From Spirochaetaceae bacterium (lineage in GTDB: Bacteria; Myxococcota_A; UBA9160; UBA4427): a DNA stretch of 64,000 nt. The notes below the pieces were generated by a model. It saw only the letters and a list, made by a program, of their open reading frames with translations. It was not told the origin of the DNA and did not search any database. The position numbers and the translations under genes were made by a program. Below, piece by piece: positions 9,624-25,381 of the stretch (positions within the stretch are counted from its first letter, which is position 1; every line of letters begins with the position of its first letter). The stretch is taken from assembly GCA_020632655.1 (NCBI GenBank), contig JACKFD010000002.1:227757-291756 (forward strand), read 5' to 3'.

Positions 9624-10066
9624 GACTCACGACTCCCATCCATCCCACCCGGAGCCATGGGGGCTCCGGCTTCACGTGACCGGTCGAAGGTGGGCGCGCT
9701 GCGCCGGGCGGGATCGGCTCGCTTCAGGATGCCTCAGGCGTCGGGGTACGCGCGAGCCACTCGAGCGACCCGGGTCGAGACCCGGTGCCGGTGCGCGGAG
9801 GCGTGTCTGGCCGCTCGCGGCGGATCCGGAGCGGACTGTCGACTTCCTCGAGCGGTCGGTGGCGCGATCCGTGGCGGATGGGTCGCCACGCATGCGCCCG
9901 GCAGCCGGGACGCACGTCCCCCCGGCGTCTCGGGCTCGGCGACGGACGCCGGGCCCGGTCGCGCCCGGGCCGCCTACGGGACGCGCTCGCGCGCCGACGG
10001 CCCCCGGATCGGGTTCCTTCCCGCCGCCCCGCTCCGCGGGGAGCCCGGCGAGGGAGGAAGATCCAT

Positions 10067-10297
<231 letters not shown>

Positions 10298-14924: not shown

Positions 14925-15347
14925 TCAGTGGCTTCGCTGCATCTTCACGATCTCACTGAGGTGGAGCTGCTCCGCTCGGATCATCGAGCGCGTGTACTCC
15001 TCGAGCTGGATGCTCTGGGATCGGACGAGCGTCAGCAGCTCCTCGTAGAGGCCGATGCCACGTCGTTCGTGTTCGATGAGCTCGGCGAGGATCGGGTCGA
15101 TCCCCTCGTGATGGGTCGCGACGACCGCACCGATTCCGAGCGAGGGCCGGCCGCCGAGGGTGGTGACTTCTTCGCCCGCAGCTCGTGCATGGTCTAGCGC
15201 CTCGCTCGCCTGTTCCTTCATCCAGCCGATGATCGGAATCCGCGCGTGGCCGAAGATCATGAGCGTGTATTGCGTGTATCGGATCGCCCCCGCGAGCTCC
15301 AGCTCCACGATTGCGTTCAACTGCTCGATCACCGCCTCCTCGTCCAT
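14925..15347 (-). CDS. Ferritin-like di-iron protein (bacterioferritin/Dps-like)
   Basis: 140 aa. It aligns by eye to the Bfr four-helix pattern with ligand motifs ELELAG...Y, EALDHA (ExxH), IEHERRG, and EEYTRSMIRAEQLH (E...H). Confidence 0.85.
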   Translation of the reverse strand: MDEEAVIEQLNAIVELELAGAIRYTQYTLMIFGHARIPIIGWMKEQASEALDHARAAGEEVTTLGGRPSLGIGAVVATHHEGIDPILAELIEHERRGIGLYEELLTLVRSQSIQLEEYTRSMIRAEQLHLSEIVKMQRSH

Positions 15348-15676
15348 CCCTCGACTCCCGATCTCGATCTTGGTCCCGTACGAGGGAGCAGGATCCGTGC
15401 CGAGCGAATCCCGTCCATCGGAAGCACCGGATCGGTCGCGCCGCAGGGGACCGGGCGGTTCCCGCGACCAGAATCCGGGAGTCGGAGCGCTTCGACCGAA
15501 TGGCGTTTCTACAAACCGCGTTACCCGTCATGGCCCGGTGGGCGTCCTCTCGCAGGGCAAGAGGGCCGTCCGGCCGGCGGGCACGCGCCTTGCTCTGTCT
15601 ACTCCCTCCCGATGTCGTCGTCGGGGCCGGTGCGGACGCCGGTGCGCTCGAGGCGACTGGAGCAAGGGAGACATCC

Positions 15677-15907
15677 ATGACACGCTGTGCTCACGCCAAC
15701 TGCTACTGCGACCTCGACGAGTCGGCCGCGATGGACGGGTACTGCAGCCCCTACTGCGCGAACGCGGGCGCACCCGCGGCCACCGACCCCGCCGCTGAAT
15801 CGGCCTGCGCCTGCCAGCACGCGGACTGCAGCGTGGCGGCCTCGCGCGAGAACAGCCGGGACCGATCCTCGCCGATTGCGATGGGTGGGGGTCCGGTTCC
15901 GGGATGA
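15677..15907 (+). CDS. Small Cys-rich protein, metallothionein-like
   Basis: ATG 15677 follows GGGAG. The 76-aa product MTRCAHANCYCDLDESAAMDGYCSPYCANAG...ACACQHADC has 9 Cys plus His in CxC/CxxxC arrangements, like bacterial metallothionein-type proteins. It is divergent from the ferritin-like gene. Confidence 0.5.
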   Translation: MTRCAHANCYCDLDESAAMDGYCSPYCANAGAPAATDPAAESACACQHADCSVAASRENSRDRSSPIAMGGGPVPG

Positions 15908-20774: not shown

Positions 20775-23198
20775 TCATCGGTGCAGGTCGACGAACTCCT
20801 TTGCATCGAAGGCGTCGACGCGGACTGCTTCGTCCCGCGCCGCACGCGCCGAGGCGAGTCGGTCGACCTCCTCTTCCCTGAGGATTCCGGCCGCGACGGC
20901 CGCCTCGGCAAGCTCGATGCCCGGCGCCGGGTCGAGTCTGCCTTCGGCTACCGCCCGACGCAGCGCGGATTCGATGGCGAGGGCCGGTGTCGCCTCCTCG
21001 AGCGCGGCTTCTAGTCGGCCGAGGCCCGGTTCGTCGGCTCGAGGGAGGTAGATCGCCGAGGTGAGGGCTTCTCGGGCTTCTGCGTCTTCGAGCAGGGCGC
21101 GAGCGGCGTCCGACCCCATCCGATCGTCCGGTCCTCGCTCGCGCCGACCGAGTGGGAAGACCAGCGGCGCGAGCAGGTACGCCATCCATCGCGTCGGAAG
21201 ATTGCGGAGCACGCCCGAAAGAGCCCGATCGACTTCGGCGAGCGCCGTCTCGCAGGCCCAGACGACGAAGGCGCGCTCGCTCTCGGGCTCGCCCGCGTCC
21301 TGGAAGCGCTTCACGGTCGCGGATCCGATGTAGAGCCAGGCCAGGGCATCCGCGAGCCGGCCCGTGATCTTCTCGCGTCGCTTCAGACGACCGCCCAGCG
21401 TGGCTAGGGCGGCGTCGGAGACGAGCGCGAACGCGGCGCTGGATCGACCGAGACGTCGACGGAATCGCCGCGCGACGCCGCGCGAAGGCATCGTTCGTTC
21501 CCGGAGTCCGCTCGACAGGGCGAGCAACGGCGCGCGAACTGCGTTTCGGGCGACGAGACCCAGATGGCCGAAGAACGCACGGTCGAAGCGACCGACGTCG
21601 GCCGTGGCGATCGCCTCCATCTCTTCGAGCACATAGGGGTGGCAGCGGATCGCGCCCTGTCCGTAGATGATCATCGAGCGCGTGAGGATGTTCGCGCCCT
21701 CGACGGTGATTCCGATCGGGATCGTCGCGTAGATCCTCTCCAGGATGTTTCGCGGGCCACGCATGATGGCCGCTCCCGCGCGGATGTCCATCGCGTCGTT
21801 CACGATCGTGCGCATGGCGTCGGTGCAGTACGCCTTGGCGATGGCGGATAGCACCGCAGGCCGCTCGCCAGCATCGACCGTCGCGAGGGTGAGCGTGCGC
21901 GTCGCGTCGATCGCGTAGGTCAGGCCCGCAATGCGCGCGAGCGGCTCCTCGACTCCTTCGAAGCGACCGATCGGTGTGTCGAACTGCTCGCGCACCATGG
22001 CATAGGCGCTCGTGACGCGGGCGGCGACCTGCGCACCCGCGGTCGCGACGGAAGGCAGCGAGATGGATCGGCCGGCCGAGAGGCTCTCCATCAGCATCTT
22101 CCAACCCTGACCGGCTCCGGCCCGTCCTCCTATGATGGCGTCGACGGGGACGAAGACGTCCTGACCGGTGGTGGGGCCGTTCTGGAAGGGCACACCCATC
22201 GGATCGTGGCGCGTACCGATCTCGATGCCGGGGAGGTCGGCTGGCACGAGCGCGCACGTGATGCCGAGCTCCGGCTCTCCGCCGAGGAGACCGTCGGGAT
22301 CCCGGAGTCGGAAGGCCAGGCCGATCAACGTCGCGACCGGCGCGAGCGTGATGTAGCGCTTGTGCCAGCGCAGTCGGATGCCCAGGACCTCCTCGCCCCG
22401 CCAGGATCCGCGGCAGACGATCCCCTCGCTGTCGGTCGCCGCGGCATCGCTTCCAGCCTCGGGGCCCGTGAGCGCGAAGCACGGGATCTCCTCTCCGCGC
22501 GCGAGACGCGGGAGGTAGTGCGCGCACTGCTCTTTGGTCCCGTAGTGGAGCAGGAGCTCCGCGGGACCGAGCGAGTTCGGGACCATCACGGTCACCGCTG
22601 CCGTGACGCTCCGACTCGCAATCTTCGTGACGACGTCGGCGTGTGCACGCGCGGAGAATCCGAGTCCTCCGTAGGACTCCGGGATGATGAGACCGAAGAA
22701 GCGCTCGTGCCGCAGCGTGCTCCAGACCTTCTCGGGCAGGTCGCCGGCCTGGGAGATCTGCCATTCGTCGAGATCGCGACACAGGTCCTCGACGGGTCCG
22801 TCGAGGAAGGCCCGCTCGCGTGGCGTCGGACCCGCGGTCCGAAATGACGCAAGCCGGTTCCAATCCGGTCGTCCCGAGAAGAGATCTCGATCGAAGCCGA
22901 CCGTGCCAGCCTCGAGGGCGACTCGCTCCGTGTCGCCGAGCGTCGGGAGGGCGCGTGCGAAGCGGGGCATCAACCGCCGCGTGATCCACCTGCGTCGTAC
23001 GGACGGCACTCCGTAGACCAGGGCGGCCAGGGCGAGGAGTGCGGCGAGCACCGAAAGGACGCCCCAGGACTCGGGTGCGGCTGCGGCACCGGCGAGCAGC
23101 GCGGCCGCGCCGCCGACGACCCAGGCGAGATAGGCACGCCCGACGAAGGTGAGTGCCAGGAATGAACCCGCGGACAGAGCGATCCAGAAGAGAGTCAT
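20775..23198 (-). CDS. fadE: Long-chain acyl-CoA dehydrogenase, FadE type
   Basis: 807 aa. It has an N-terminal membrane-like segment followed by PTLGDTERVALEAGTVGFDRDLFSGRPDW, co-linear with E. coli FadE ([26 protein letters not shown]). ACAD core motifs follow. Confidence 0.9.
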   Translation of the reverse strand: MTLFWIALSAGSFLALTFVGRAYLAWVVGGAAALLAGAAAAPESWGVLSVLAALLALAALVYGVPSVRRRWITRRLMPRFARALPTLGDTERVALEAGTVGFDRDLFSGRPDWNRLASFRTAGPTPRERAFLDGPVEDLCRDLDEWQISQAGDLPEKVWSTLRHERFFGLIIPESYGGLGFSARAHADVVTKIASRSVTAAVTVMVPNSLGPAELLLHYGTKEQCAHYLPRLARGEEIPCFALTGPEAGSDAAATDSEGIVCRGSWRGEEVLGIRLRWHKRYITLAPVATLIGLAFRLRDPDGLLGGEPELGITCALVPADLPGIEIGTRHDPMGVPFQNGPTTGQDVFVPVDAIIGGRAGAGQGWKMLMESLSAGRSISLPSVATAGAQVAARVTSAYAMVREQFDTPIGRFEGVEEPLARIAGLTYAIDATRTLTLATVDAGERPAVLSAIAKAYCTDAMRTIVNDAMDIRAGAAIMRGPRNILERIYATIPIGITVEGANILTRSMIIYGQGAIRCHPYVLEEMEAIATADVGRFDRAFFGHLGLVARNAVRAPLLALSSGLRERTMPSRGVARRFRRRLGRSSAAFALVSDAALATLGGRLKRREKITGRLADALAWLYIGSATVKRFQDAGEPESERAFVVWACETALAEVDRALSGVLRNLPTRWMAYLLAPLVFPLGRRERGPDDRMGSDAARALLEDAEAREALTSAIYLPRADEPGLGRLEAALEEATPALAIESALRRAVAEGRLDPAPGIELAEAAVAAGILREEEVDRLASARAARDEAVRVDAFDAKEFVDLHR

Positions 23199-23371
23199 GA
23201 CATGTTCCTTTCGCGGCCGTCGAGGTGAGCGGACCCTCGCTCCGAGTCCGAGGACTCCTCGACGGGGGTCGGGGCCCGCTCGTAGGGACGCGCTTCGAGC
23301 GGCGGCTGGCGCGTTCTGTCGAGAGGCGGCTCGGCCGGCCTCTCGGCTCTACGGACGGGAGGCGCGTTGCG

Positions 23372-23399
23372 CAGTGGATCCGAGCCGCCGGATCCGCTG
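23372..23399 (-). terminator. Candidate terminator hairpin after the encapsulin gene
   Basis: cagtGGATCCG-agccgc-CGGATCCgctg forms an 11-bp stem with one G.U, 34 nt downstream of the encapsulin stop. There is no U-tract, which is common in GC-rich genomes. A second hairpin lies at 23320-23345 (CGAGAGGC...GCCTCTCG). Confidence 0.35.
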
Positions 23400-23432
23400 G
23401 CCGGGTGCCGAGTGGCGCGGACGACCGGGTGG

Positions 23433-24245
23433 CTAGACATCGGGCGGAAGGAGGGGAACGGCCGCCTCCGGCCCGGTCAGTTCGGCGGTGAAGCTCTCTT
23501 CCAGATAGAGGCGGATGTGATCGTCGTCGTGGCCGACGTATCCGATCGCCGCGTCGCGCCCGCAGACCATCCTGAAGTCGCCCCCGCGCAGGCTGGCGAC
23601 CACGCCACCACGGAGCGTCGCCGCCCAGATGACGTCGCGGTCGACCAGGCCACGCACGTGGCGGGCCATGGGATAGCCGCCCGCACCCGAAGCGCGAGCG
23701 AGTGCCTTGTGCGCCTCGGGTCCGAGAGCCACCACATAGGGCCCGGAGACGCCGGCGCGACGCAGCTGCTCGAGTGCCTCGGCGACCGCGTCGGCAAGGC
23801 GCGTGCCCTCGCCGGAGATCGCGACCCCCTCGTTCGTGGAGTCGGTGATCAGGCCCGGGATGTCGGCGTCGGCATATCCCTCGAAGATCGCGTCGTCCTC
23901 AGCGGCGGCGAATACGCGAGCGGCTTCGCGAAGTGGATCCAGATCGATGCGGGACGCGCCGCGATCGGCGCGCTCGATCGCCTGGCGCTCGAGCGTGAAC
24001 GGTACCCGGAGCTCGATCAACGGCCGGACGACCCGACGCCGAATCGTGGCGCGGGAGTCCACCTCGCACTCGAGCGACTCCGCTCGTCCGAGATCGAGAC
24101 CCGAATGGAGCCATCCGAACGGACCTTCGAAGTCCACCAGCCTCCGCGCGGCGAGACGCATCGTAAGCATGTCGCGAGCCTCGGATTCGATGCGTCTCCA
24201 GGCGGTGTCGCTGATCGGGGCGAGATGTCGATTCAATCCACCCAA
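23433..24245 (-). CDS. Encapsulin nanocompartment shell protein (family 1, linocin M18-like)
   Basis: (M)GGLNRHLAPISDTAWRRIESEARDMLTMRLAARRLVDFEGPFGW... matches the N-terminal signature of family-1 encapsulins (xxLxRxLAPISxxAWxxIExEA...AGRRVVDVxGPxGW). There is no ATG/GTG. TTG 24243-24245 lies 8 nt after GAGGAG. The alternative TTG 24234-24236 overlaps the EncFtn stop as TTGA. The length is about 267-270 aa. Confidence 0.9.
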   Translation of the reverse strand: MGGLNRHLAPISDTAWRRIESEARDMLTMRLAARRLVDFEGPFGWLHSGLDLGRAESLECEVDSRATIRRRVVRPLIELRVPFTLERQAIERADRGASRIDLDPLREAARVFAAAEDDAIFEGYADADIPGLITDSTNEGVAISGEGTRLADAVAEALEQLRRAGVSGPYVVALGPEAHKALARASGAGGYPMARHVRGLVDRDVIWAATLRGGVVASLRGGDFRMVCGRDAAIGYVGHDDDHIRLYLEESFTAELTGPEAAVPLLPPDV

Positions 24246-24643
24246 TCCGAGATCTCCTCGCCCGATCGTTCCCGACGCAGCCGGTCGATGCCGCGCAGGG
24301 CGCCGATGCCCAGATGGCGTTCTTCGCCAGTCTGATGATGATCTCCTCGGGCAGGCTCGCTCCGTGCGATCGGATCGGCTCGGAACAGGAAGCGGCGGAG
24401 GAGTCCGTCGAACTCGGGGTCGCGACGACGGATCCATTCGAGGAGCATGCACGCGTGCTCCTTCTCCTCGTCTCGATGGTTCGCGAGGACGCTTCTCAGA
24501 TCGTCGTCGGTCGTCGTGTGCAAACGGTCCTCGTAGGTATCCACTGCTACGAGCTCCTCGATCAACGACGTCAACGCGTGGTGCATGTCCTGGATCTCGG
24601 CCGACGGCCGGTCTCGGGATTCGTGTGTCGTGGCGGCTGTCAT
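24233..24643 (-). CDS. Encapsulated ferritin (EncFtn / ferritin-like cargo protein)
   Basis: ATG 24641-24643 lies 8 nt after AAGGAGG; 136 aa. DMHHALTSLIEELVAVDTYEDR...ANHRDEEKEHACMLLEWIRRRDP carries the EncFtn ferroxidase motifs. HLGIGALRG resembles the SLGIGSLKG cargo-loading peptide but is followed by 18 more residues. Confidence 0.9.
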   Translation of the reverse strand: MTAATTHESRDRPSAEIQDMHHALTSLIEELVAVDTYEDRLHTTTDDDLRSVLANHRDEEKEHACMLLEWIRRRDPEFDGLLRRFLFRADPIARSEPARGDHHQTGEERHLGIGALRGIDRLRRERSGEEISDWVD

Positions 24644-24676
24644 GGGGCCGAGCCTCCTTTCTCTTGCTCTTTCCGT

Positions 24677-24787
24677 CCCGGGGCTGCTTCGCACCGACGC
24701 ACGCGGGACCGAGCCCGGGGCTGCTTCGCACCGACGCACGCGGGACCGAGCCCGGGGCTGCTTCGCACCGACGCACGCGGGACCGAG
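24677..24787. repeat. Perfect 3 x 37-bp tandem repeat in the EncFtn/encapsulin leader
   Basis: The unit cccggggctgcttcgcaccgacgcacgcgggaccgag occurs at 24677-24713, 24714-24750 and 24751-24787 with no mismatch. The array ends 33 nt upstream of the EncFtn ATG. Each unit contains a CCCGGG palindrome. Confidence 0.97.
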
Positions 24788-25381
24788 AGAGGCGCGGATT
24801 CGGCTTCAGCCGCGGGTCGCGCCGGCTTTCTGACATCCCGTACTGGAAACTCAAGCAAGCGTCGTGCCGACGCGGCGCGAAGGGCCGAGGGCCGATTCGC
24901 CACGCCCCTTCCATTCGCAGAGGCGAGGCAGTTGGCGGCTCGCGGAAGACGACGAGCTCGGCGCTCCCATGTCTTCCACCTCGACGTCGTGCCAACATGA
25001 ATCGCGTCAGACGCCAGAGGGGCTCTATGGCGGAGCTGGCGGAGTGTCCGGCCGGGATCGGGACGATCGTGCTCCGTGCCGCGTCATGCGCCTCCACCTG
25101 ATTCCGCCGAGACGATGTCCGGGGTCTCACGGCGTACTGTCGCGACGAGACCACGCCGCGGCGCGTGGATCATTGTAGAAAGGGCGCCGCGACATCTCCG
25201 ACCGGCTCGACGCGCCCGGTCACCCCGACCGACTGTGCGTCGGCGACGGACGGGCGTCGGGCGCATGCCGAGCCCGTCGGCACCTTGTTGTGCCCCGATC
25301 GCTTCGCGAAGCTGTCGATCGACGTCGTCTGCGGATGCCCGTTTGGCGAGACGGTCCATCTACGCAGACGGGAGTAGCGCC

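Follow-up and report, generated by a model that had tools for sequence, protein, structure and literature searches.

The window (the whole 64-kb stretch of DNA that was analysed) carries on its minus strand a two-gene operon, in which an EncFtn cargo gene (24643..24233; from an ATG at 24643 to a TGA at 24235..24233; 136 aa) precedes a family-1 encapsulin shell gene (23433..24245; stop codon at 23435..23433). The shell protein is 270 aa long when read from the first of two TTG codons (TTG1) and 267 aa from the second (TTG2, at 24236). The operon is already annotated as an encapsulated ferritin with its protein shell, the NCBI names of the two genes being ferritin and family 1 encapsulin nanocompartment shell protein, both under Myxococcota bacterium.

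An earlier note had read the pair as EncFtn plus a family-1 encapsulin, and this identity was upheld by HMM searches and by full-length homologues of solved structure for both proteins. The EncFtn matches the EncFtn-like family PF22277 (E 1.9e-30; 104.9 bits against a gathering score of 27) and solved EncFtns from Rhodospirillum rubrum, Haliangium ochraceum and others (E 1e-20 to 1e-24); it falls below the curated cutoff of the NCBIfam model for encapsulin-associated ferritin-like proteins, TIGR04535 (104.2 bits against 125). Judged by its sequence, with a best non-self homologue only 59% identical, it is a divergent member of the family. The shell exceeds the cutoffs of both PF04454 (Linocin_M18; E 7.8e-79; 264.9 bits against 24.3, coverage 1-261 of 261) and the NCBIfam equivalog for family-1 encapsulin shells, NF041155 (278.2 bits against 100). 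Its residues 1-268 align with the solved family-1 (HK97-fold) shells 8u50, 9ry4, Cfp29 (7boj) and 7odw with E values between 1e-58 and 1e-67, and the Thermotoga maritima shell 3dkt is recovered at E 3e-42. The comparison proposed earlier with the systems of R. rubrum, Mycobacterium tuberculosis and T. maritima finds the shell homologous to all three. The cargo encoded directly upstream of the shell gene, the EncFtn, bears a loading peptide of the GxLGIxxL type, HLGIGALR. Taken together, the locus is very probably a standard iron-storage operon of the family-1 encapsulin type, carried by an uncultured bacterium of the Myxococcota and ordinary apart from the TTG start of its shell gene and the length of the tail of its cargo.

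Across independent assemblies (NCBI, JGI, ENA and Logan), 24 contigs carry the identical 136-aa EncFtn together with the same gene junction. This identity refutes the reading that the tail and the overlap of the frames are an assembly or sequencing artefact, in which an indel masks a stop codon right after LGIGALRG. The earlier note had asked about such an indel; the junction is identical in the 11 loci examined, which come from different samples (NCBI MAGs including a 1.47-Mb contig, JGI, ENA and Logan), we found no point in support of the artefact, and we regard its likelihood as vanishingly small.

Among the characterised systems, the operon resembles the Enc:EncFtn of H. ochraceum (7odw/7oe2), likewise of the Myxococcota (family-1 shell at E 1.6e-58, EncFtn at E 3.1e-21), and the R. 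rubrum EncFtn (Rru_A0973)/encapsulin system (5da5, 9ry4), likewise a two-gene operon with the cargo preceding the shell (PMC5012862; 10.1101/785121), whose shell is homologous to that of the window over its full length (E 2.1e-67). In the H. ochraceum shell the peptide GSLGIGSLR was seen bound at the P-domain (10.1101/2021.04.15.439977), and HLGIGALR of the window matches this loading motif. In contrast to H. ochraceum, the cargo of the window has a 20-residue extension after LGIGAL and lacks the equivalents of Glu34, Trp38 and His57, and its shell gene has a TTG start with a 13-nt overlap. The closest uncultured relatives are three loci from JGI metagenomes (L093, L094 and L096) and one from a MAG labelled Spirochaetales (L014). 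They share with the window the EncFtn-shell gene order, a GAGGAG that sits 8 nt ahead of the shell start codon and is read as Glu-Glu in the cargo tail, a shell N-terminus of the form M-x-x-L-N-R-x-L-A-P and a putative sigma-54-type promoter upstream. They differ in having 4-nt GTGA overlaps and post-core tails mostly of 6-8 residues (17 in L096), and in lacking both the duplicated peptide codons and the 37-nt repeat described below. Downstream of the operon, L094 and L096 have a gene for a Fe/Mn superoxide dismutase, whereas the window has one for an acyl-CoA dehydrogenase. A further open reading frame, ORF81 (23195..23440, minus strand), bridges the shell stop and the ATG of the acyl-CoA dehydrogenase; having neither a Pfam match nor a public gene call, it was treated as a chance frame. 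Its GC3 pattern is mildly coding-like, and by a rough estimate an open frame of such length is expected at the local G+C.

At the junction of the two genes, the Shine-Dalgarno sequence of the shell gene, GAGGAG (24254..24259, minus strand), lies within the EncFtn coding sequence as its Glu-Glu codons, 8 nt before TTG1 (24245..24243), which gives a 13-nt overlap with EncFtn; TTG2 (24236..24234) forms TTGA with the cargo stop and gives a 4-nt overlap. Both arrangements had been pointed out before and are present in the sequence, and the shell can indeed begin sensibly only at these two TTG codons: the nearest in-frame ATG/GTG codons upstream lie 201 and 216 nt before TTG2, inside EncFtn, and the first ATG downstream in the shell frame is codon 26. 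The overlap as such proved not to be unusual, being found in 21 of 24 homologous operons, with exactly 4 nt (ATGA or GTGA) in 15 of those. Its architecture fits translational coupling of the two genes; such coupling may, as suggested earlier, also set the cargo:shell stoichiometry. The start codon is the more distinctive feature: the shell begins with ATG in 16 and GTG in 8 of the 24 homologous operons and with TTG in none, and the shell TTG is the sole TTG start among 19 neighbouring gene calls; expression of the shell could therefore differ from that in the relatives.

The most likely start, from comparison of the sequences, is TTG1 with its 13-nt overlap, as homology, identical Shine-Dalgarno spacing and the solved structures all agree. 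Each relative starts its shell gene 3 codons ahead of the residue that aligns with TTG2, i.e., at the position of TTG1, and the N-terminus read from TTG1, MGGLNRHLAPI, compares with MIDLNRHLAPL, MTGLNRDLAPI and MIGLN in the relatives. Shell residues 1-268 align with residues 1-266 of the Klebsiella pneumoniae shell 8u50 (E 1.6e-67; MGGLNRHLAPISD versus MNNLHRELAPVSD); alignments with M. tuberculosis shells also start at residue 1, and that with R. rubrum at residue 2. A start at TTG2 by strict termination-reinitiation, yielding the 267-aa shell and a 4-nt overlap, is unlikely, though it has points in its favour: the TTGA geometry resembles the usual 4-nt ATGA/GTGA overlap of the family, the NF041155 alignment begins at shell residue 4, which corresponds to TTG2, and two NCBI records as well as the JGI gene calls use it. 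Weighing against it are the starts of the relatives 3 codons upstream, the alignment of the solved K. pneumoniae and M. tuberculosis shells from residue 1 of the 270-aa form, and the ribosome-binding geometry: 17 nt separate GAGGAG from TTG2, and the only Shine-Dalgarno-like pairing closer to it stops 1 nt short of the codon and is less stable (predicted duplex energy -8.4 kcal/mol versus -12.3 for TTG1). The two starts predict the N-terminal peptides (M)GGLNRHLAPISDTAWR from the TTG at 24245 and (M)NRHLAPISDTAWR from that at 24236. Where the earlier note had left the overlap at 4 or 13 nt, both geometries exist, but the ambiguity is settled towards 13 nt.

With the start at TTG1, the junction can be understood as a mutated form of the canonical GTGA/ATGA overlap. 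The site of this start/stop overlap in L014, L093, L094 and L096 is occupied in the window by TTGG (24242..24245, minus strand), so that GTG would have become TTG as the start of the shell and the former stop TGA would have become TGG (Trp134). With TGA changed to TGG at the old stop, EncFtn extends by three codons (WVD), and its new TGA stop is formed by the shell codons Leu4-Asn5. By analogy with characterised homologues, the shell gene would be translated from the same mRNA as EncFtn, with initiation at the TTG at 24245 probably aided by ribosomes ending at the cargo stop 10 nt downstream.

In archaeal systems a ferritin domain is fused to the encapsulin shell. A comparable EncFtn-shell fusion could in principle arise here if ribosomes made a programmed -1 frameshift towards the end of EncFtn, the shell frame being -1 relative to EncFtn and open far upstream as a 573-aa ORF. 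Inspection of the sequence found no slippery heptamer at the junction; moreover, long open frames are to be expected at a G+C of about 72%, the upstream portion of the 573-aa frame is without homology, and translation of the shell is accounted for by its own Shine-Dalgarno sequence and a start at the canonical position. We consider such a fusion highly improbable. The warning that automated callers would produce the 573-aa ORF or miss the shell start was half right: the ORF exists mechanically and is used by no public gene call, whereas the start is missed in some, the public shell calls being of 270 aa (TTG1), 267 aa (TTG2) and, truncated by a start at the internal ATG, 245 aa.

The cargo-loading (targeting) peptide HLGIGALRG (24290..24316, minus strand; residues 110-118) lines up with the LGIGSLR motif in 82 homologues and, as reported before, is followed by the 18-residue tail IDRLRRERSGEEISDWVD (24236..24289, minus strand). 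The claim that a loading peptide removed from the C-terminus is an oddity did not survive comparison: in 79 of the 82 homologous cargos at least 3 residues lie past the six-residue core, with a median of 7 and a range of 1-24. Tails are thus routine among homologues, which is in part the outcome named earlier as refuting the claim, but the length in the window is unusual: its 20 residues past the LGIGAL core place it at about the 97th percentile of the family. It is long and not unique, as 4 of the 82 cargos have tails of 16-24 residues and L012 has a further one of 23 residues. The tails of the homologues usually encode the Shine-Dalgarno sequence of the shell gene (GAGGAG as Glu-Glu); otherwise they share no motif and vary freely in sequence. 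Those of the relatives end in ..GEEKRA*, ..AEEERT*, ..GEEERA* and ..REEARS*, and GAGGAG there lies 8 nt ahead of the shell start codon. A second candidate loading peptide, the internal PSLGIGAVV of a ferritin-like protein (14925..15347), was rejected; the L-x-I-G motif of this loop is also present in Escherichia coli bacterioferritin (LGKLNIGEDV), and that of the window is therefore probably structural.

The tail begins with a degenerate in-frame tandem copy of the peptide codons, GGCATCGACCGGCTGCGT (GIDRLR), directly after GGCATCGGCGCCCTGCGC (GIGALR), forming a direct repeat with a spacing of 18 nt (24275..24292, minus strand). The two units agree at 13 of 18 nt and, in translation, at 4 of 6 aa. 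This duplication was spotted post hoc; among 1180 pairs of neighbouring in-frame 18-nt blocks from three local genes an identity of 13/18 was reached once, presumably by the GIGALR/GIDRLR pair itself, and in the homologues (n=52) the best copy of the peptide reaches 2 of 6 aa. The tail as a whole would then be an evolutionary by-product and not a new module, assembled from the 18-nt duplication of peptide codons (which supplies the (G)IDRLR), a variable linker RERS, the Gly-Glu-Glu that encodes the Shine-Dalgarno sequence, a spacer ISD and the read-through WVD. We infer that it is neutral. The 11 loci differ at 0-3 mostly synonymous sites, none of them in the tail, and three single-residue variants of the EncFtn protein have their changes outside it. 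The population available for comparison is almost clonal, and identity to the next relative drops to 59%.

A functional role for the long tail, whether in altered docking through a second or alternative shell contact, in decamer stability or in mineral nucleation, appears decidedly improbable. Its constancy on all 24 contigs and in the three single-residue variants would speak for such a role, but in so clonal a population conservation is uninformative. The AF2 model has a helix over EncFtn residues 115-126, which could mean a structured tail; the confidence of this helix is only moderate to low (pLDDT about 55-73). The C-terminal 46 residues of EncFtn gave no match in the PDB. The second copy does retain Gly-Ile-x-x-Leu-Arg, yet it swaps the small Gly and Ala for Asp and Arg and has lost the first Leu of the L-G-I register. 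Compensating features are also conceivable in an EncFtn that lacks accessory metal-site residues. Against all of these stand the freedom of homologous tails in length (1-24) and sequence, with only the Shine-Dalgarno-encoded Glu-Glu in common, and the availability of a trivial origin (duplication, Shine-Dalgarno sequence, lost stop) for each segment. A neutral tail remains our preferred reading.

The body of the EncFtn would act as a decameric ferroxidase cargo, as in characterised homologues. Its AF2 model has the expected two long helices (pLDDT >90), and the residues of the ferroxidase centre, E30, Y37, E60 and H63, are intact; they correspond to Glu32, Tyr39, Glu62 and His65 of R. rubrum and are conserved without change in 118-119 of the 119 homologues. 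The accessory-site residues E29, E59 and E62 are retained. Three other positions depart from R. rubrum, with Val32 in place of Glu34 of the entry site (Glu or Asp in 115/119 homologues), Thr36 in place of Trp38 (Trp in 112/119) and Asn55 in place of His57 of the exit site (His in 114/119); each of the residues of the window is found in none of the 119 homologues. In R. rubrum, the accessory sites comprise an entry site of Glu31/Glu34 with Trp38 and an exit site of His57/Glu61/Glu64; E34A and W38A raised ferroxidase activity, and loss of W38 destabilised the decamer (PMC5012862; 10.1101/785121). The accessory metal sites are characteristic of the EncFtn family without strictly defining it.

Upstream of the operon, about 226 nt before the EncFtn ATG, lies a sigma-54-type promoter-like element, CGGCACGACGCTTGCT (GG-N10-GC; 24854..24869, minus strand), with one mismatch to TGGCACG-N4-TTGCW, for which 0.19 matches are expected in the whole window. 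The motif, at up to one mismatch, also occurs 59-110 nt upstream of EncFtn in all four of the closest relatives, L092, L093, L094 and L096, against a background of 0.02 per 300 nt. NtrC-type activator genes (bEBPs, with GAFTGA) adjoin the operon in L093 (on a second contig), L094 and L096, and none is encoded in the 64-kb window. On this basis CGGCACGACGCTTGCT may function as a sigma-54-type promoter. Our text search of the literature found no paper mentioning both sigma-54 and encapsulins, and a scan for sigma-70 promoters and terminators yielded nothing useful.

The leader between this element and the ribosome-binding site of EncFtn (Shine-Dalgarno AGGAGG, 24653..24658, minus strand, 9 nt before the ATG; predicted anti-SD duplex -11.6 kcal/mol) contains a perfect 37-nt x 3 tandem repeat (24677..24787, minus strand; 3.0 copies, 100% identical). 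Its copy number is polymorphic, with 4 copies in L011 and 3 in L002, where one unit has 2 substitutions, and most short contigs break inside it. The unit is absent from the rest of the window; in the metagenome collection it was found on 2 contigs, one being the EncFtn-side L007 and the other, we assume, the opposite flank of the same locus. A dispersed repeat element was rejected, the unit being confined in the window to the EncFtn locus. An RNA element was likewise rejected, as the leader forms a less stable fold than shuffled sequence does (z = +1.9); Rfam at gathering thresholds returned one tRNA only in the whole window, and no conservation of the leader beyond the promoter was detected.

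These features could be drawn together into a functionally distinct EncFtn subtype in this lineage, marked by the loss of Glu34 (one ligand at the entry site, replaced by Val), the gating Trp38 and His57 of the exit site, a duplicated helix-prone peptide extension and an operon under sigma-54, with the 37-nt repeat tuning expression. We view this as a long shot; were it true, the rate of iron oxidation and the holding of the decamer and its docking inside the shell could change.

The main value of the operon thus lies in calibration. EncFtn-encapsulin operons have start-stop overlaps by default, and likewise short acidic post-peptide tails that double as the ribosome-binding site of the shell gene; neither feature is grounds for calling an operon anomalous. 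The lesson for annotation is that callers disagree on the shell start (270, 267 or 245 aa), and homology to solved shells points to the first TTG. Beyond this, the locus offers modest leads in the putative sigma-54-type promoter conserved in this Myxococcota clade, in the polymorphic tandem repeat of the leader and in a natural EncFtn lacking residues that, when mutated in the R. rubrum enzyme, make it faster.

The operon lies on the minus strand and comprises an encapsulated ferritin (EncFtn) cargo gene (ATG at 24643 to TGA at 24235..24233; 136 aa), preceded by the Shine-Dalgarno (SD) sequence AGGAGG (24658..24653, 9 nt ahead of the ATG), and, directly downstream in the -1 frame relative to it, a family-1 encapsulin shell gene with its stop at 23435..23433. 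The shell SD, GAGGAG (24259..24254), is followed by two candidate start codons: TTG1 at 24245, exactly 8 nt downstream, which would give a 270-aa shell and a 13-nt overlap with EncFtn, and TTG2 at 24236, which forms TTGA with the cargo stop and would give a 267-aa shell and a 4-nt overlap. The nearest in-frame ATG and GTG codons upstream are 201 and 216 nt distant, both within EncFtn, and the first ATG downstream in the shell frame is codon 26, use of which would remove the conserved N-terminal helix. The cargo C-terminus reads ...HLGIGALRG-IDRLRRERSGEEISDWVD, the first nine of these residues (110-118) being the loading peptide. When coordinates, starts, SD and cargo C-terminus were re-read from the window, all the sequence statements of the earlier note on this operon proved correct. 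Its gene identities are likewise borne out by profile searches (EncFtn against Pfam EncFtn-like, E 1.9e-30; shell against Pfam Linocin_M18, E 7.8e-79, and the family-1 encapsulin equivalog NF041155, 278 bits with a cutoff of 100) and by full-length alignment to proteins of solved structure: R. rubrum, H. ochraceum and NE0167 for EncFtn (E 1e-20 to 1e-24), and the K. pneumoniae, R. rubrum, M. tuberculosis Cfp29, H. ochraceum and T. maritima shells (E 1e-42 to 1e-67). EncFtn scores 104 bits against NCBIfam TIGR04535, under the stricter cutoff of 125, and its AlphaFold model has the expected two long helices (pLDDT >90). The operon is a divergent member of a well-known encapsulin kind.

The identical 136-aa EncFtn is encoded on 24 public contigs (from the NCBI MAGs GCA_020430525.1, GCA_041389465.1 and GCA_035399405.1 and from JGI, ENA and Logan assemblies), and the cargo-shell junction is the same in 11 of 11 loci examined, which excludes an indel artefact there. 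Both proteins are already correctly named in public databases, as ‘ferritin’ and ‘family 1 encapsulin nanocompartment shell protein’ of Myxococcota or Myxococcales bacteria. Public gene calls make the shell 270 aa (TTG1), 267 aa (TTG2) or 245 aa (internal ATG) long; none uses the 573-aa ORF predicted as a spurious call. The identical 270-aa shell is on record from MAGs assigned to Myxococcales and from ‘Spirochaetaceae bacterium’ MAGs (MCB9723229.1), and the closest distinct shell (67.7% identity) comes from L014, a locus in a MAG labelled Spirochaetales; these mixed labels suggest that binning or taxonomy is inconsistent for the lineage.

The cargo-shell overlap, which had been singled out as remarkable, turns out to be commonplace. 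Junctions were reconstructed in 24 homologous operons (20 from GTDB species genomes of many phyla and 4 closer metagenomic relatives), and 21 of them overlap: by exactly 4 nt (ATGA or GTGA) in 15, by 1 nt in three, and by 13, 17 and 20 nt in one each. Their shells start with ATG (16) or GTG (8) and never with TTG, and the shell TTG is the sole TTG start among 19 public gene calls of the neighbourhood. Judged by these junctions, overlap is the default architecture of the EncFtn-encapsulin family, the TTG start being the only rare element.

As to which TTG is used, the shell start of every relative precedes the residue aligned with TTG2 by three codons, the exact position of TTG1. The shells of the closest relatives begin GTG-ATC-GAC-CTG-AAC (MIDLN), GTG-ACT-GGA-CTC-AAT (MTGLN) and GTG-ATC-GGA-CTC-AAC (MIGLN), and that of the window, read from TTG1, begins TTG-GGT-GGA-TTG-AAT ((M)GGLN). 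GAGGAG stands 8 nt ahead of the shell start in the relatives L093, L094 and L014, as in the window; residue 1 of the 270-aa shell aligns with residue 1 of the solved K. pneumoniae shell (MGGLNRHLAPISD versus MNNLHRELAPVSD); and the predicted SD:anti-SD duplex has an energy of -12.3 kcal/mol for TTG1 versus -8.4 kcal/mol for TTG2, where it ends 1 nt from the codon. Together these comparisons favour TTG1, and we infer that the shell quite probably starts there, with a 13-nt overlap.

In the relatives the junction reads xxG-TGA, with the shell start NTG overlapping the cargo stop TGA; in the window it reads GAT-TGG, with T as the first base of the start and G for the A of the stop. Because the stop TGA has become TGG, EncFtn reads on through Trp-Val-Asp to a TGA formed by the shell Leu4-Asn5 codons (TTG-AAT), a second TGA that is also present in L093 and L096. 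The earlier note had further considered a tail after the loading peptide exceptional. Among 82 motif-bearing homologues from a search of 5.8 billion proteins, a median of 7 residues (range 1-24) follow the six-residue core LGIGAL and only three proteins end right after the motif, so that the window tail is unusual only in its length: 20 residues after the core, with tails of at least 16 in 4 of the 82 (24, 20, 17, 16) and one of 23 in the homologous locus L012. The relatives’ tails typically end Gly-Glu-Glu-x-x-x-stop because GAGGAG is the shell SD, and the window tail resolves completely into five segments: GIDRLR, copied in tandem from the GIGALR codons; RERS, a variable linker; GEE, encoding the SD; ISD, a spacer; and WVD, the read-through following TGA>TGG. 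The GIDRLR codons (GGCATCGACCGGCTGCGT) immediately follow GGCATCGGCGCCCTGCGC (GIGALR); the two agree at 13 of 18 nt and at 4 of 6 residues. Among the 1180 pairs of neighbouring in-frame 18-nt blocks in three local genes, exactly one reaches 13/18, which we take to be this very pair, and the corresponding identity in 52 homologues is at most 2 of 6 residues. At the start of the tail, the codons of the loading peptide are thus duplicated in tandem in degenerate form, a pattern spotted post hoc. A helix across residues 115-126 in the AF2 model (pLDDT about 55-73) is weak support at best for a structured tail. The population is nearly clonal, and the next EncFtn relative is 59% identical.

Upstream of EncFtn on the minus strand is a sigma-54-type -24/-12 promoter motif, CGGCACGACGCTTGCT (GGCACG-N4-TTGCT; 24869..24854), with 0.19 matches expected across the window. 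It recurs with at most one mismatch in all four closest relatives (L092, L093, L094 and L096), 59-110 nt ahead of EncFtn, the background being 0.02 per 300 nt, and with two mismatches in L014 and a further homologous locus, L013. Genes for an NtrC-type enhancer-binding protein and a histidine kinase adjoin the operon in three relatives; the 64-kb window encodes neither, and a literature text search found no paper with both ‘encapsulin’ and sigma-54. Between the promoter motif and the EncFtn SD, the leader carries three perfect tandem copies of a 37-nt unit (24677..24787, minus strand), 34 nt downstream of which lies the EncFtn ATG. The repeat is polymorphic among public contigs bearing the locus: L011 has four copies, L002 has three, one of which differs by two G>A changes (GCGT..GTGC to GCAT..ATGC), and most short-read contigs (L003-L010 compared) stop within it. 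The unit is confined to the EncFtn locus in the window and the metagenome collection searched, and folding gave no RNA-structure signal in it.

The window contains just one further sigma-54-like motif (GGGCACGCGCCTTGCT, 15579-15594, plus strand), about 83 nt ahead of a cysteine-rich 76-aa ORF (ATG at 15677, plus strand) with the clusters CAHANCYC...GYCSPYC...CACQHADC, whose similarity to prokaryotic metallothionein stays below threshold (E 0.099). The ORF and a 140-aa ferritin-like (PF00210) gene (14925-15347, minus strand) are divergently oriented; motif and genes together hint at a small sigma-54 regulon for metal or oxidative stress. Within the ferritin-like protein, the stretch RPSLGIGAVV (residues about 76-85) resembles the encapsulin loading motif; since E. 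coli bacterioferritin has LGKLNIGEDV in the same loop, we set this aside as a targeting peptide and regard it as probably a structural family motif. Elsewhere, a (CACGAC)n repeat (10124-10184) encodes a His-Asp run in a candidate ORF (9785-10297, plus strand), shortly followed by a SEC-C-type zinc motif at the C-terminus. Downstream of the shell, an 81-codon Pro/Arg/Glu-rich ORF (23195-23440, minus strand) overlaps the last shell codons with its ATG and the start of an acyl-CoA dehydrogenase gene as ATGA, bridging the two exactly. The GC1/GC2/GC3 pattern of this ORF looks mildly coding-like; Pfam gave no match to it and public annotation has no gene there, and chance is its probable origin in 72% G+C DNA. 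Whereas two of the closest relatives have an Fe/Mn superoxide dismutase gene directly after the shell (L094 7236-7964; L096 4340-4942), the window has the 807-aa acyl-CoA dehydrogenase (20775-23198, minus strand) and then a Na+/H+ exchanger.

In R. rubrum and H. ochraceum, Fe(II) is oxidised at the di-iron centre of EncFtn decamers, which a GxLGIxxL peptide tethers to the shell P-domain, and the oxidised iron mineralises within the shell lumen (PMC5012862; 10.1101/2021.04.15.439977). By analogy, the window operon would function in the same way, its overlapping, coupled translation unit being the family-standard route to joint production of cargo and shell. The ferroxidase ligands E30, E60, H63 and Y37 are intact; H22, V32, T36, D39 and N55, at positions at least 95% conserved, are residues found in 0 of 119 homologues, and by this measure the protein is an outlier in its family. 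Compared with R. rubrum EncFtn, it has V32 for Glu34 (entry site), T36 for Trp38 and N55 for His57 (exit site). Of the R. rubrum variants, E34A had twice the wild-type ferroxidase activity and W38A about five times, and without W38 the decamer was also less stable (10.1101/785121). The operon offers small leads: a natural EncFtn without the accessory sites, a duplicated loading peptide, and a sigma-54-type promoter with a variable repeat.
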